From a virus (Duplodnaviria > Caudoviricetes), in IMG/VR virus record IMGVR_UViG_3300047279_000042, positions 1 to 35,569 of that record: DNA of 35,569 nt; one strand, given 5' to 3'. Under the pieces are notes generated by a model. The model saw nothing but the letters and a program-made list of their open reading frames with translations. It was not told the DNA's origin and did not search any database. The position numbers and the translations under genes were made by a program. Shown here one piece after another: positions 16,186 through 22,250 of this stretch (its first letter is position 1; every line of letters starts with the position of its first letter).

Positions 16186-16472
16186 AGACCCCAGCCTGGC
16201 AGCGTAAAGAGGGCAAAAGCCCATCTGGCGGGTTAAACGCCAAGGGCCGTGCCAGCGCAAAGGCGCAGGGTATGGACCTCAAAGCGCCCGTCAAATCAGG
16301 CGACAATCCAAGGCGTGCCAGCTTCTTGGCGCGAATGGGCAATATGCCTGGGCCTGAGATGAAGGGCGGTGAGCCGACACGGCTGCTGCTGAGTCTCAAG
16401 GCATGGGGCGCAAGCTCCAAGGCCGATGCCAAGGCAAAAGCCAAAGCAATATCTGCAAGGAACAAAAAATGA
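16182..16472 (+). CDS. Small basic protein (DUF6321-like)
   Basis: AWQRKEGK.P.GGLNAKGRAS...RRASFLARM...SL.AW motif; ATGA coupling. Confidence 0.7.
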   Translation: MKTPAWQRKEGKSPSGGLNAKGRASAKAQGMDLKAPVKSGDNPRRASFLARMGNMPGPEMKGGEPTRLLLSLKAWGASSKADAKAKAKAISARNKK

Positions 16473-18682
16473 ACGACATGAATATGGACATCAGCACCGA
16501 CATTGCAGCCACCGAGCCAATGGATGATGCGGAACTGCAAAGCATCATCACGCAAGACCTGACCGATGCCATCAGCTATGTGGACAGTGATCTGTCCCCC
16601 ACACGCGCCAAGGGGACTGAATACTATCGCGGTGATTTATTCGGCAATGAGGTCGAAGGCAACAGCAAGGTGGTGGCCATGGAAGTGCGGGACACTGTCT
16701 CGGCCATGCTGCCAAGCCTGATGCGTGTTTTCTTTAGTTCTGAGAATGTGGTCGAGTTTGCACCCCGTGGCCCAGAAGACATGAAGATGGCCCAGCAGGC
16801 GACAGACTACGCCAACTATGTATTCCAGAACGACAACAACGGGTTTCTGACCAGCTATGCCATTTTCAAAGATGCGCTGGTCAGGAAATGTGGCATTGCC
16901 AAATTCTGGTGGGAAGACGAAGAGAAGGTCCGAATTGAAGAGTACACCGGCCTTGATGACCAGACCCTAGAGATGCTGATGCAAGAGCCTGGTGGTGAGG
17001 TCAAGATCATTACGTCTTACCCAGACCCAGCGATTGATGAAGCGCAGCTCACAACTGTAGACCCCACCACTGGCCAGCCGATAGTAATGCCTGCGCCAAT
17101 GATCCATGATGTGCAAATCAAGCGTATCACAAAGGATGGCCGGATCAGGATCATGGCCGTGCCACCCGAAGAATTATTGCTGGACAGACGCGCCAGATCG
17201 TTTGACGACTCAACCATCATTGCCCACAGGCAAATGGCCACCATGGCTGACTTGCTCGCCATGGGCTATGACCAAGATGAGATCGAAGAGAATATGTCAT
17301 CGACTGACTTGGACAGCAATGACGAGTATTTAGCGCGTCAGCCACTGAGTACCACATTTGGCACAAATGACGCTGCAAACCCGATGATGCGCAGAGTGCT
17401 GTACATCGAGGCTTATTCCCGTGTGGACTTTGATGGTGATGGCATTGCAGAGCTTAGAAAAGTCTGCTGCATGGGTGGCGGCTATAAGGTGGTGCGCAAT
17501 CTGCCGGCCAGCTACATCCCCTTTGCTGACTTTCCCTGCGACCCAGAGCCACACACAAGCCCACTTGAGGCGATGTCGATTTTTGATATTACCCGTGACT
17601 TGCAAGAGATCAAGTCGGAAATACTCCGAAACACATTGGACAGTCTGGCCCAGAGCATTCACCCTCGCACAGCGGTGGTCGAAGGCCAAGTCAACATCGA
17701 TGATGTCTTGAACAACGAGACTGGCGCAATTATTCGTATGCGTGCGCCTGGCATGGTCCAACCCCTGACAACTCCATTTGTTGGTCAGGCCGCATTCCCG
17801 ATGATGGAATACATGGACCAGATCAAGGAAGACCGCACCGGCATGAGCAAGGCGGCCATGGGTCTGAACGCTGATGCATTGCAGTCCAGCACCAAGGCAG
17901 CTGTGGCAGCGACCATCAGCGCCAGTCAAGGCCGGATTGAACTCACGGCACGCATTCTGGCCGAGGGCATGAAAAAGCTATTCAAGGGCATTTTGTTCTT
18001 GGCCACAACGCACCAGGACAAAGCCCGAATGGTCAGAATGCGCAATGAGTGGGTGCAGATCGATCCAAGGTTCTGGGATGTGGGCATGGATGCCAACATC
18101 AACATTGCATTGGGCAATGGCGACACCAACGAGAAACTGCAAGCGCTGATGATGATCATGTCCAAGCAAGAGCAAATCCTGCAACAACTTGGCCCACAGA
18201 ATCCACTGGTCACGCCACAGCAGTTCAGCAATACCCTGCGAAAAATCGTAGAGGTATCTGGTTTCAAAGACACAACAAGCTATTTCCAGAATATCCCTGC
18301 CGACTATGTGCCACCCGCACCACCACAAAAGCCAAGCCCCGAAGAGGTGCTGGCCCAGGTGCAGGCCGAGTCCATCAAGGCCGACATCCAGAAGAAGGCT
18401 GCCGAGCTTGAACTCAAGCGCCAGCAGATGATCATGGATGATGATCTAAACCGCGACAAGATGGCTCAGGATTTGTATCTCAAAAAATATGAAATTGAGT
18501 TAAAGTACAACTCACAGATCAGTACAGCCGAAATTGATGCGGCACAAAGTATTGATCGTGAAGCAATGCGTCAGCAGTCGCTATTGGCCCAGCAGCAAGC
18601 CGCACAGTTTGTGCAGCAACCACAGCAGCCACCAGCGCCTGAGATGATGCCCCCATCAACCTTTCAAGGAATGGCACAGTAA
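16469..18682 (+). CDS. Portal protein (podovirus type, long coiled-coil C-terminus)
   Basis: YYRG..FGNE..G.S.VV..VRDTV..MLPSLMRVF..DAL..K.G..K.WW...Q.IKS.ILR..LD..RTG; lies between terL and scaffold; start ATG 16469 after AAGGA. Confidence 0.9.
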   Translation: MNDMNMDISTDIAATEPMDDAELQSIITQDLTDAISYVDSDLSPTRAKGTEYYRGDLFGNEVEGNSKVVAMEVRDTVSAMLPSLMRVFFSSENVVEFAPRGPEDMKMAQQATDYANYVFQNDNNGFLTSYAIFKDALVRKCGIAKFWWEDEEKVRIEEYTGLDDQTLEMLMQEPGGEVKIITSYPDPAIDEAQLTTVDPTTGQPIVMPAPMIHDVQIKRITKDGRIRIMAVPPEELLLDRRARSFDDSTIIAHRQMATMADLLAMGYDQDEIEENMSSTDLDSNDEYLARQPLSTTFGTNDAANPMMRRVLYIEAYSRVDFDGDGIAELRKVCCMGGGYKVVRNLPASYIPFADFPCDPEPHTSPLEAMSIFDITRDLQEIKSEILRNTLDSLAQSIHPRTAVVEGQVNIDDVLNNETGAIIRMRAPGMVQPLTTPFVGQAAFPMMEYMDQIKEDRTGMSKAAMGLNADALQSSTKAAVAATISASQGRIELTARILAEGMKKLFKGILFLATTHQDKARMVRMRNEWVQIDPRFWDVGMDANINIALGNGDTNEKLQALMMIMSKQEQILQQLGPQNPLVTPQQFSNTLRKIVEVSGFKDTTSYFQNIPADYVPPAPPQKPSPEEVLAQVQAESIKADIQKKAAELELKRQQMIMDDDLNRDKMAQDLYLKKYEIELKYNSQISTAEIDAAQSIDREAMRQQSLLAQQQAAQFVQQPQQPPAPEMMPPSTFQGMAQ

Positions 18683-18955: not shown

Positions 18956-19936
18956 ATGGCAGAAATACAAGCAATGAATATGGTCGATGCGACCAGTGCT
19001 ATCTCGGCAATGTTAGCCCCCCAAAAGGGACAAGCAGAACTTGACGAGACGCAGCCAGTCGAGGAATCCGAAGAGGAAACCGAGACAGCGGCTTCTGAAG
19101 ATGATGACTCTGGTGTGGAAGACGCGCCAGACGAAGAGTCTTCAGAGGAACAGTCCGAAGAAGAGGAAGAGCAAGAGGAGCAAGAACAGCCACAGACTTT
19201 CACTGTCAAAGTAGACGGCAAGGAAGTTTCTGTCACGCTAGACGAGCTGCAAAAAGGCTATTCCAGAACTCAGGACTACACTCGGAAAACGCAGCAAATT
19301 GCCGAAGTGCGAAAGCAAGTCGAGCAAGAAACGTATGCAGTCCGAGCCGAGCGTGAGCAATACGCTCAATTGTTGGGAGCATTGCAAGCCCAACTTCAGT
19401 CTTCAGAGCCTCAAATTGATTTGGAGCGCCTCTACCAAGAGGACCCAATTGAATGGGTTAGGCAAAATGAAGTCATGCGACAGAGACAAGAGAAACTCGG
19501 TGCTATTCAATCAGAGCAGCAGCGGCTTTATCAAGTTTCCCAGCATGAGCAGCAGCGTGCTATGGAGGCCCAACTTGCCAGCCAGCAAGAAGCCCTGTTA
19601 GCAGCTTTGCCAGATTGGAAAGACCCCAAGAAGGCGAAGGCCGAAAAGGCACTGGTGATTGAGTCTGCAAAGGCAGCAGGCTTTTCAGATGAAGACTTGA
19701 AGAGTGTTTACGACCACCGACTGGTCCTGTTGCTGCGTAAAGCGGCACTGTTTGACCAGATGGTAAGTAAACGCCAAGGCATTAAGCCTGTGGTGAACAA
19801 TGGCCCACGACCAGCCAAGCCTGGTGCAGCTGGTCGGGTTTCGACAACAACTGAGAGTACGCGAGCAAAGCAGCGTCTTGCTAAAACTGGCCGTGTCGAT
19901 GATGCGGCTTCTGCAATTGAACTCTTATTGAAATGA
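18956..19936 (+). CDS. Capsid scaffolding protein
   Basis: Acidic N-terminus, TVKVDGKEVSVTLDELQKGY.R..DYTRKTQ, coiled coil, C-terminal RLAKTG.VDDAA; directly upstream of the capsid gene. Confidence 0.88.
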   Translation: MAEIQAMNMVDATSAISAMLAPQKGQAELDETQPVEESEEETETAASEDDDSGVEDAPDEESSEEQSEEEEEQEEQEQPQTFTVKVDGKEVSVTLDELQKGYSRTQDYTRKTQQIAEVRKQVEQETYAVRAEREQYAQLLGALQAQLQSSEPQIDLERLYQEDPIEWVRQNEVMRQRQEKLGAIQSEQQRLYQVSQHEQQRAMEAQLASQQEALLAALPDWKDPKKAKAEKALVIESAKAAGFSDEDLKSVYDHRLVLLLRKAALFDQMVSKRQGIKPVVNNGPRPAKPGAAGRVSTTTESTRAKQRLAKTGRVDDAASAIELLLK

Positions 19937-19943
19937 GGAAATT

Positions 19944-20277
19944 ATGGCTATCGTAAGTAACACGTTCTTGACCTATTCGGCCAAGGGCATCCGCGAAGAC
20001 TTGAGCAATGTGATCACAAACATTGCCCCCGAAGAAACCCCTTACATGAGCAACATTGGCCGTGAAAACGTGTCCAACAGCTTGTATGAGTGGCAGACCG
20101 ATACATTGGCCGCAGCTGCTGCCAATGCCCAGTTAGAGGGTGATGATGTTGCATCATTTGACTCTGTGACTGCTACTGTGCGTTTGCAAAACTACGCACA
20201 GATTTCACGCAAGACAATCATCTTGTCAGCTACTGAAGAAGTGGTGAACAAGGCTGGTCGTCGCAGCGAATTGGCGT
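19944..20277 (+). CDS. Major capsid protein, exon 1 (DUF5309/SU10-MCP-like)
   Basis: GAGG RBS; GIREDLS..I.NI.PEETP..EWQTD.L..EG.D..R..NY.QI.RK; ends ...GAA TTG GCG T at the splice site. Confidence 0.92.
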
Positions 20278-20597
20278 TAACTTTGCATTGATAAGCGCCC
20301 GTATTCGGTAACGAATATTGAAAAACTAGGTGAATTGCTGGAAACCCTTTAGAGCCTGATACACCACAACATAGCCCGAAAGAGCAAGTGTGATGGTCCA
20401 AAAAGAATCAGGATTAGGCAATCAGCAGCCAAGCACCGCATAAGGTGAAGGTTCAACGACTAGGGAGTAATCCCGTAGGACCAAGTGGTCCGAAGTGCCT
20501 AGCCCCAGAGATGGGTGAAGATATAGTCTGATCTTGTATGAGAGTACAAGCCTCGAAAGAGGGTCGGGAAGATAACGAGTCCTGGCAAACAAAAATG
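20278..20597 (+). ncRNA. Group I self-splicing intron (IA2 architecture, 320 nt, no endonuclease ORF)
   Basis: Core motifs P AATTGCTGGAAA (20333), Q AATCAGCAGCC (20420), R TTCAACGACTA (20452), S AAGATATAGTCT (20518); P1 GGCGU/GCGCC with a U-G wobble; P7.1 and P7.2 hairpins; terminal G at 20597; removal restores the reading frame. Confidence 0.96.
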
Positions 20598-21226
20598 ACC
20601 AGATCGCAAAGCGTGGCGCTGAAATTAAGCGCGATCAAGAATTCTCCATGCTCAATGGCGCTATCGCTGTTGCTGGTGATTCTACGACTGCACGCACGAC
20701 TGCCTCTTTGGGCGCGTTTGTGAAAACAAACACCGACAAAGGCTCTGGCGGTGCTGACCCATCTTACACAACGCTGCCAAACAGCGCCCGTACAGATGGC
20801 ACAGTTCGCACATTCACTGAAACCATTCTCAAGAATGTGATTCAGAAGGTGTGGACTGCTGGTGGCACACCTAAGATTTTGATGTGCGGTCCTGTTAACA
20901 AGCAGCGCGTGTCAGGTTTCTCTGGTATCGCTTCCAGCCGTTTCAACATTGATGGCGGTGCAAAGCCTGCCACACTGGTTGGCGCAGTTGACATTTATGT
21001 TTCAGATTTCGGAAACGTACAGGTCATTGCAAACCGCTTCCAGCGTGAGCGTGATGCATGGGTGATCGATCCTGACTACGCCAAGATGACAGTGCTGCGC
21101 CCTTACCAGCAAGTCGAATTGGCCAAGACCGGTGACGCTGAAAAGCGTATGCTGATCGCAGAATGGGGTCACAAAGTGTTGGCTGAAAATGCCCACGGCT
21201 TGGCCGCTGACTTGGTTACTTCTTAA
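20598..21226 (+). CDS. Major capsid protein, exon 2 (spliced product 320 aa)
   Basis: The join gives SELA-Y-QIAKRGAEIKRDQEFSML, in frame with ORF 20648..21226 (YVSDFG, LAKTGDAEKRML..EW..V.AE.AHG). Confidence 0.92.
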
Positions 21227-21240
21227 TAGTAAGCAAACGG

Positions 21241-21270
21241 AAAGAGCCAGAGAAATCTGGCTCTTTTTTT
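21241..21270 (+). terminator. Intrinsic terminator after the capsid gene
   Basis: AAAGAGCCAGA-GAAA-TCTGGCTCTTT followed by a T-run. Confidence 0.9.
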
Positions 21271-21273
21271 AAT

Positions 21274-21591
21274 ATGATTCACAAAAGACTATTTAGCGAA
21301 AACAAAGAACAAGGCATCAAGCGCTATTGGCATGAGAATGCTGAGACTGGCGATGTGACCATTGAGACCCAGCAAGATGTGACTGCGGTGGTGGAGGCCA
21401 ACAAGGCCATCTATAACGCTGTAGACGAGAAGGCTGCATGGAAAGGTGAGTGGCACTTGGTGGCATCCATCCCCGAATCCCTTTTTTACAAGATGAAGGC
21501 CGAGGGCAAGATCGATGACCAGGAGTACATGAAGCGCTGGCTCAACGATTCTGACAATCAATTTTTTAGAACAAGACCTGGGAAAATATGA
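21274..21591 (+). CDS. Conserved hypothetical protein downstream of the capsid gene
   Basis: QDV...EANK...HLVASIP...WLND.DN..FRT pattern; coupled to the next gene. Confidence 0.7.
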   Translation: MIHKRLFSENKEQGIKRYWHENAETGDVTIETQQDVTAVVEANKAIYNAVDEKAAWKGEWHLVASIPESLFYKMKAEGKIDDQEYMKRWLNDSDNQFFRTRPGKI

Positions 21592-22250
21592 GCAATTACG
21601 TCGCAGTTTGCACACCGGCCCGTGATCAAGTCCACACCAACTATTGCTACTGCATGGTCAATATGGTGGCTTATCACACACTCAACACTGAAGACGCTAT
21701 CAGTCTGAAATTGATGCAAGGCACGATTATCCAAAACCAAAGGGCTGACCTTTGCTTGGATGCATTGCGCGAAGGCTGCTCACACATTCTCTTCATTGAC
21801 TCTGACATGACATTCCCCCAAGACATGGTGGGGAGGCTCTTGGCCCATGACAAAGACATTGTGGCTGCCAACTGTGCCAAGCGCAGAATGCCAACTGGAC
21901 CAACTGCGCAGAATTATGATGAGAACGGCAAACGAATCCCTGTCTACACCATGCCAGATTCGACTGGATTGGAAGAGGTGGGGAGCATTGGAACGGGCAT
22001 AATGCTGATCAAGCGCGAGGTGTTTAAGGGTATGTCTGAGCCATGGTTTGATATGCCGTGGCAGACCACACGGGGCTACATGGGAGAAGATGTGTTCTTT
22101 TGTAAGAAAGCCAAAGAGCTGGGCTACAAAGTCTACATCGACCATGACGTTTCTCAAGAGATTGGCCACATTGGGACTTTTGAGTTTGGCCACCCTCACA
22201 CTTGGATTGTGAAAGAAGAGATGGAAAAAGAGGCGAAAAATGGCACTTAG
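21588..22250 (+). CDS. GT-A fold (GT2-like) glycosyltransferase
   Basis: ILFIDSDM (DxD motif), GTGIMLIKREVF..PWF, GEDVFFC, YIDH..GHIG. Confidence 0.85.
   Translation: MSNYVAVCTPARDQVHTNYCYCMVNMVAYHTLNTEDAISLKLMQGTIIQNQRADLCLDALREGCSHILFIDSDMTFPQDMVGRLLAHDKDIVAANCAKRRMPTGPTAQNYDENGKRIPVYTMPDSTGLEEVGSIGTGIMLIKREVFKGMSEPWFDMPWQTTRGYMGEDVFFCKKAKELGYKVYIDHDVSQEIGHIGTFEFGHPHTWIVKEEMEKEAKNGT

Follow-up and report, generated by a model that had tools for sequence, protein, structure and literature searches.

Group I introns have been found in phage capsid genes before. The intron in the major capsid gene of mycobacteriophage LittleE was shown to be spliced by RT-PCR and protein sequencing, in a paper that also cites a capsid intron in lactococcal phage Tuc2009 (Pope et al. 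2013, PMC3706429), and the MCP genes of Delta and Zeta crAss-like phages contain group I introns and have as many as four intervening segments (Yutin et al. 2021, PMC7886860). Peters et al. 2022 (PMC9523058), considered as a further capsid case, does not mention introns. Collaborative homing, in which ORF-less phage introns are mobilized by free-standing endonucleases, has been reviewed (Hausner et al. 2014, PMC3984707), metatranscriptomes have lent support to group I introns of Jug phages (37/76; PMC12880540), and the gene preference of phage group I introns has been called still mysterious (PMC12350094).

Here we describe a group I intron of 320 bases that interrupts the capsid gene in a complete virus record (100% complete according to CheckV), the 35,569 bases of which were analyzed over their full length and are referred to as the window. 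An earlier note, made from the sequence of the window, had set the capsid location of this intron against the DNA-metabolism genes that house the best-known phage group I introns; the capsid introns already published for LittleE and Tuc2009 (PMC3706429) and for the crAss-like MCP genes (PMC7886860) do not sustain the view that such a location is surprising. In a literature search conducted largely without subscription papers, we found no paper on the SU10-type freshwater family or on circular forms of phage capsid introns in environmental RNA. The element is of an ordinary kind, and it is the RNA circles, the three optional intron sites and a one-sided conserved flank that take it slightly beyond a routine case. 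We hold it to be very probable that the intron, which interrupts the capsid gene between the first and second bases of codon 112, is excised in living material from close relatives, likely through ribozyme activity of its own, to give a normal capsid, and that it is most likely a near-neutral selfish passenger that lost or never had an endonuclease.

The window intron resembles that of LittleE in that it interrupts a single major capsid gene, with a U at the end of the exon and a G at the end of the intron, and in that close relatives lack it. Splicing of the LittleE intron was observed in infected cells, whereas that of the window intron is known from RNA contigs of close relatives. The LittleE intron is 819 bp long, contains an endonuclease gene and was not assigned to a subgroup; the window intron, in contrast, is 320 nt long, ORF-less and IA2-type, interrupts an SU10-family capsid gene and occupies one of three optional sites. 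As in the crAss-like phages, the capsid gene of uncultured phages is cut by one to several group I introns that defeat gene callers, but the crAss-like introns were found via intron-encoded protein domains in large gut phages, whereas the window intron is ORF-less, resides in a 35.6-kb freshwater-type phage and has RNA evidence behind it. With phage introns of subgroup IA2 (Pf-WMP3 DNA polymerase, PMC3428280; T4 td, nrdB and nrdD, and SPO1, as cited) it shares G-U-A-linked P7.1 and P7.2, an extended P9 domain, a U-G pair at the splice site, a terminal G and an early in-frame stop; unlike them, it is without a homing endonuclease, lies in a structural gene and has a P2 and a ~60-nt P5 extension. 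Collaborative homing systems are similar in that an ORF-less intron lies in a conserved gene and an optional free-standing endonuclease gene is found nearby in the phage family, but in the family of the window the intron and the endonuclease were never found in one and the same record at the site concerned (site B).

The best match among GenBank phages is a group I intron, ORF-less and so far without annotation, that lies close to the end of the annotated major capsid gene of Vibrio phage 1.232.O (MG592596; L324:1455-1778), which is 74.7% identical over 68% of the window intron, scores 83.1 bits against RF00028 and has the same P5 extension. It differs in belonging to a different capsid family, in its position near the C-terminus, in its reduced P7.1 and in having, after a short second exon, a free-standing HNH gene directly downstream. 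This cultured phage carries a relative of the intron that can be tested at the bench. The value of the present case lies in its population setting and in how complete the evidence is, since public environmental RNA shows the junction, the precursor and the circle alike.

The split capsid gene and its boundaries

The head module of the window contains, in order, genes encoding terminase, an SU10 portal (16403-18682, PF23899), scaffold, major head protein and adaptor. The scaffolding gene (18956..19936, + strand, phrog_3927) lies directly 5' of the split capsid gene, which thereby belongs to the head module. Exon 1 (19944..20277, + strand) comprises 111 codons and a U, the first base of Tyr112, and matches positions 3-106 of PF17236 (E 2e-29) as well as the major head family phrog_1328. 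Exon 2 (20598..21226, + strand) supplies the last two bases of Tyr112, 208 codons and the stop, matches positions 125-291 of PF17236 (E 2e-49) and is 93-99% identical to 80 relatives. Together the exons match consecutive stretches of the 292-position family model, as is expected of an SU10-family major capsid protein. The split gene is the only major capsid gene of the phage, and splicing is obligatory for its capsid. The capsid region was not called as one gene but as two ORFs of 115 and 192 aa; both fragments sit in a public protein collection, and the prediction that gene callers would yield two broken capsid fragments therefore holds.

As the earlier note had stated, the capsid frame stops at TGA TAA (20289..20294, + strand), in the fifth codon from the splice site, such that an unspliced message would terminate five codons into the intron and produce the 115-aa fragment. 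Joining U20277 to A20598, with removal of 20278-20597, rebuilds a 320-aa capsid protein with the motif SELAYQIAKRGAEIKRDQE at the junction, also as predicted. An open frame is insufficient to set the boundaries because many U/G pairs give one, and enumeration of open frames was rejected as proof of the splice sites (dozens of other U/G pairs also leave the frame open). The boundaries were set at 20278-20597 because 106 relatives are uninterrupted and because RNA contigs skip exactly that span. Two IMG/VR protein searches returned 160 loci, of which 111, including the window's own, are distinct. In 106 of these 111 the matches to the two exons lie one codon apart, and that codon encodes Tyr in the context Tyr-Gln-Ile, so that the spliced protein aligns with its intronless relatives continuously over the junction, as had been anticipated; in five, the window included, an intron of 319-320 nt is present at the Tyr codon. 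A solved capsid, 9NY2, also aligns without a gap over the intron site.

The intron (20278..20597, + strand) is recognized by the Rfam group I model that the earlier note had put forward as a check: cmscan matched RF00028 to 20268-20550, scoring 80.5 bits where the cut-off is 50 (E 4e-19), and this was the sole Rfam match across the window up to E=1. It contains no endonuclease gene of the kind that marks a mobile (homing) intron, being 320 nt long with stops in all three frames, and its description as ORF-less extends to 57 related introns, in which the longest stop-free stretch is 49-90 codons and no ORF fits. In all 57, an in-frame stop occurs no more than nine codons from the splice site. 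Early in-frame stops have been noted as a trait of bacterial group I introns (PMC3984707).

Ribozyme fold and subgroup

The ribozyme motifs that had been listed for the intron were all found where they had been placed, except that P4 was one base out of register relative to the Rfam alignment (20336-20341 with 20422-20427), and P5 with its ~60-nt extension, P6/P6a, P9.0 and P9.2 had been missed. In P1 (20273..20299, + strand), the last five exon bases are predicted to pair with a guide sequence at 20295-20299 (pair probability 0.93-1.0), with U20277-G20295 at the 5' splice site and the in-frame stop in the loop. The U-G pair is present in 15 of 15 site-B introns, two of which have one compensatory pair change in this helix, and together with the terminal G20597 at the 3' splice site it provides the splice-site bases characteristic of group I introns. 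An exon hairpin considered as a competitor of P1 was rejected (probability ≤0.01). P2 (20301..20318, + strand) is a hairpin with a GNRA loop and seven pairs, 100% paired, four of which have changed on both sides.

The catalytic core (20326..20529, + strand), placed from the Rfam alignment and pair counts, consists of P3 (20326-32/20496-502), P4 (20336-41/20422-27), P6 (20428-30/20450-52), P6a, P7 (20456-62/20524-29) and P8. P7 contains a bulged C20457 beside the pair G20458-C20528, which, from its position in the established group I structure, we take to be the G-binding pair. P5 and its ~60-nt structured extension, which ends in a GAAA loop (20346..20418, + strand), have changed on both sides at 12 of 20 pairs; the extension is present in the Vibrio phage 1.232.O intron and absent from the introns at the two other capsid sites, A and C. 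P7.1 and P7.2 (20463..20491, + strand) are joined by a G-U-A linker, the IA2 hallmark, with compensatory changes at four of five P7.2 pairs, and P9.0, P9, P9.1 and P9.2 (20531..20596, + strand) are 100% paired, with eight of 20 pairs compensatory. Judged from its sequence, the intron is IA2-type by two criteria, P7.1 and P7.2 joined by G-U-A (PMC3428280) and a domain 9 that is extended and has P9.0, P9.1 and P9.2 (PMC4227781), in a subgroup that is reported to be heterogeneous (PMC11878797).

Across 15 distinct site-B introns, the only ones on which the pairing model (written from the Rfam alignment and the window) was counted, 98.6% of 1333 cells are paired and 32 of 91 pairs are compensatory, figures biased toward pairing support by the kinship of the sequences and by the derivation of the structure from one of them, and owing part of the covariation signal to two divergent introns (L179 and L223). 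The compensatory count was reached by none of 500 shuffles, and slid controls gave one to three such pairs. Changes on both sides in P5, the P5 extension, P7.2, P9 and P9.2 are also seen among the 13 closer introns. In the 15 introns P3, P4, P6 and P7 are 100% paired and P8 96.7%; P4, P6 and P7 are invariant among site-B introns, and P4 covaries between sites. All 100 shuffles of the intron region folded less well than the region itself (z -3.4); the minimum-energy fold misses P1 and P7, as expected for a pseudoknot. A candidate P10, between the 5' strand of the intron and exon 2, forms a 6-bp duplex of -7.9 kcal/mol that is not above chance (72 of 928 exon windows equal it), and its pairing is kept with changed letters in L176 and L256.

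Splicing and intron circles in environmental RNA

The sequencing runs that contain the capsid gene are mostly river and lake metatranscriptomes. Eight of 23 were examined, of which X1, X2, X6, X7, X9 and X12 are RNA, the kind being off record for X15 and X17. Among the other runs, X21-X23 contain hardly any of the sequence words searched for. The evidence from these runs takes the form of assembled contigs, absent coverage was never counted as evidence, and the RNA is that of close relatives (L027-like, with an intron that differs at three bases) rather than that of the window's own phage. Contigs that skip exactly 20278-20597 were present in X9 (depth 69.9) and X6 (depth 7.2), with 30 and 19 letters, respectively, on the short side, both below a 31-letter bar, 30 being the length expected from a branch in a 31-mer graph. 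In X7, an exon-1 contig runs into exon-2 letters and an exon-2 contig is preceded by exon-1 letters, such that the loose ends match, and none of six contigs examined covers 20278-20288 or holds an unspliced junction. Exon ligation in vivo was therefore seen, in contigs of close relatives, in three of six RNA runs, and the spliced junction that the earlier note had suggested looking for in metatranscriptomes was found. X9 also contains an unspliced contig (depth 23.6) beside the spliced one, X1 contains an unspliced contig only, and X2 and X12 have exon junctions of the intronless type. X15 and X17 contain neither the exon junction nor a circle joint, and unspliced contigs across the boundaries are present in both. 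Intronless DNA is an unlikely source of the X9 junction, because the spliced contig agrees with the intron-bearing allele L027 at 10 of 10 exon-2 variants, because none of 103 intronless alleles matches its 30 exon-1 bases, and because only one of the 103 (L215) shares even the last six.

The excised intron was also found as a circle. Closed contigs of 339 letters in X2, X6 and X7 (three of six RNA runs) join G20597 to U20289; their shorter side measures 91-152 letters, the two sides have no letters in common where they meet, and the contigs correspond to a 309-nt circle (20289..20597, + strand) that has lost the first 11 bases of the intron. Once excised, a group I intron is known to form a shortened circle when its terminal G attacks close to the 5' end (PMC4344496). 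In X12, a single contig of depth 4 joins the end of the intron to its first base and is possibly a full-length intron circle. Other group I introns, abundant as contigs in X7 and X9, share P4 motifs and were set aside as unrelated.

In group I splicing, a guanosine-initiated attack at the 5' splice site is followed by attack of exon 1 at the 3' site. For the window intron, the last five exon bases would pair with the guide sequence to form P1, as predicted and supported by covariation; free guanosine bound at P7 would, by established group I chemistry, attack after U20277; exon 1 would then attack after G20597, joining the exons into the product seen in RNA contigs; and the terminal G of the freed intron would attack after U20288 to produce the 309-nt circle that was seen, the full-length circle having appeared once, weakly. 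Removal of the intron is likely due to its own ribozyme activity, and we infer that self-splicing can be protein-free. Among Bastillevirinae, four of eight spliced genes are reported to be spliced only in infected cells (PMC11878797).

Distribution and spread of the intron

Among the 110 relatives from the protein searches, 106 have no intron at site B. Site-B introns are present in four, while six carry an intron at site A (after codon 29, ~260 nt) and three at site C (in codon 246, ~265 nt), making 13 of 110 carriers in total. The introns at sites A and C are likewise optional, ORF-less and group I (e.g., L008:2492-2751 and L105:3738-4004, in the same capsid gene), and the site A, B and C introns are 60-68% alike. 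Some phages carry two, and all three occur together in L208 and L296. Since the family has hundreds of near-identical members and 13 of 110 relatives carry an intron, gene callers must break a measurable share of its capsid genes. In a tree built from 130 distinct exon sequences (193 resolved loci, with L008 and L009 omitted as unresolved), 18 site-B alleles need 11 changes, nine of them forced by well-supported branches, compared with a shuffled mean of 12.4; the tree is only approximate because intron searches enriched the sample and because the gene undergoes recombination. The site-B intron is scattered across the capsid tree and is dispensable in the family. L215 is the only one among 103 intronless alleles whose last six exon bases are of the intron type, and it may represent a precise intron loss. 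Two alleles, L179 (1800-2100) and L223 (1801-2100), carry a different intron at exactly site B, 70% alike, with another guide sequence, a shorter P5 and a longer P9.1, which may reflect either an independent invasion or deep divergence.

A 22-base core pattern matched at least 130 IMG/VR loci, some contigs being counted twice, of which at least 84 lie in capsid genes of the window's family. Among the matches listed, 46 are other loci; at least 13 of these adjoin other major head genes, the rest include major tail, terminase, tape measure, NrdD and DNA polymerase genes, and several enclose HNH or GIY-YIG genes. The same core thus occurs mostly in virion genes of unrelated phages, including major tail genes (L173, L207, L250 and L251) and other capsid genes (L192, L195, L198, L219, L224 and L239), and also in a terminase (L168) and a tape measure (L244) gene. 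The introns of L219 and L239 contain a NUMOD4-HNH gene; they share the core but lie in a different capsid family, and were rejected as an endonuclease-bearing version of the site-B intron. Capsid genes with only ~33-50% identity (L174, L178, L184, L193 and L176) have related introns at these sites or close to them, two each in L174 and L178.

The joined message and the circle in RNA, together with the absence of the intron from most relatives, make it likely that the intron is a selfish element of a known type that the phage tolerates, and not a switch governing virus production. Its scattered distribution suggests that DNA recombination carries it from one capsid allele to another within a phage population that mixes freely, possibly aided at times by an endonuclease acting in trans. 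Directly 5' of the intron, intron-bearing alleles share a near-invariant exon tract of ~90 nt (20188..20277, + strand): diversity in these upstream 90 nt is 0.020 among eight intron-bearing alleles (a set that omits L204, which is outside the clade, and the duplicates L208 and L297), compared with an expectation of 0.117 when drawing from 77 intronless alleles in that clade, and none of 20,000 draws was as low. Downstream of the site, diversity is 0.152 compared with 0.214 expected (104 of 20,000 draws as low). The near-identical pair L015/L014 has six of its 16 differences within -23..-2 and none at +1..+105, and L098/L079 has five differences within -23..-2 and none at +1..+303. The one-sided upstream tract resembles the co-conversion footprint of homing, although ordinary recombination combined with selection on the exon could give the same.

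This flank, and the concentration of differences at -23..-2 in near-identical pairs, are what would be expected if the intron were still homing collaboratively, with an endonuclease in trans cutting intronless alleles just upstream of the site. A candidate exists in the family: a free-standing HNH_3 endonuclease gene of 153 aa (L014:3992-4453), between homologues of window 21274-21591 and 21588-22250, is optionally present one gene 3' of the capsid gene in seven of 130 alleles (in a direct HNH search, 15 of 18 loci were close homologues), and the related capsid intron of Vibrio phage 1.232.O is likewise adjoined by an HNH gene. However, HNH family searches and ORF scans found this gene neither in the window nor in any of five intron-bearing records, none of 14 HNH-bearing capsid alleles carries the site-B intron or has the low-diversity tract at the site, and no endonuclease-bearing version of the intron was found at site B. 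The family's HNH was therefore rejected as the mobilizer of the site-B intron, and the endonuclease that a collaborative pair would have in the same genome was not found within that scope. Ongoing collaborative homing is less likely than the reading we favor. A broader proposal, in which a gene-less IA2 lineage has specialized on virion genes and is spreading in wild freshwater phages at three capsid sites, leaving a one-sided conversion tract by means of either a borrowed nicking HNH or the stable intron circles of river and lake RNA, is speculative and somewhat less likely still. If it were true, this abundant phage family would offer a natural setting in which to study the persistence and movement of ORF-less introns, and the circle-to-junction ratio would gauge late infection in the field. 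The one-sided conserved flank offers a concrete starting point for studying the spread of endonuclease-free introns.

The earlier note had instead proposed that splicing could act as a metabolic or temperature gate on virion production. A domesticated gate of this type, in which splicing hinges on temperature, Mg or guanosine and delays capsid synthesis until conditions suit, would be compatible with the obligatory splicing of the capsid message, with the conserved, structured P5 extension and with the spliced and unspliced contigs side by side in X9, and the idea of phage introns as sensors has been discussed, as unproven (PMC11878797). Yet 106 of 110 relatives do without the intron, its gains and losses are scattered over the tree, three unrelated capsid sites are occupied in varying combinations, and none of the six X7 contigs examined holds an unspliced junction. 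Nor was a ligand-binding RNA family found in the intron: Rfam riboswitches matched neither the window (up to E=1) nor 20335-20430 (up to E=10), and with respect to described aptamers it does not qualify as an allosteric intron. These data make a gate improbable. That the insert is dead or born of assembly, the capsid gene being broken or read by frameshift or readthrough, might be suggested by the two stops after exon 1 and by the metagenome-assembled nature of the record, but is practically ruled out by the presence of the same intron in independent contigs, pairing kept by compensatory change, stops in all three frames, and the exact junction and circle in RNA, which refute the broken-gene reading.

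Several minor observations concern the phage and the surroundings of the capsid gene. Four MAG contigs considered as pointers to a host have labels unrelated to each other, look like binned phage DNA and name no host. A glycosyltransferase-like gene (21588-22250; phrog_12406, weak Anp1) lies within the head module of the window and in L204 is either replaced or absent. Just past the capsid stop, at 21241-21266, an 11-pair hairpin is followed by a T run on the + strand (an automated hairpin scan reported the - strand only), and is likely a terminator.
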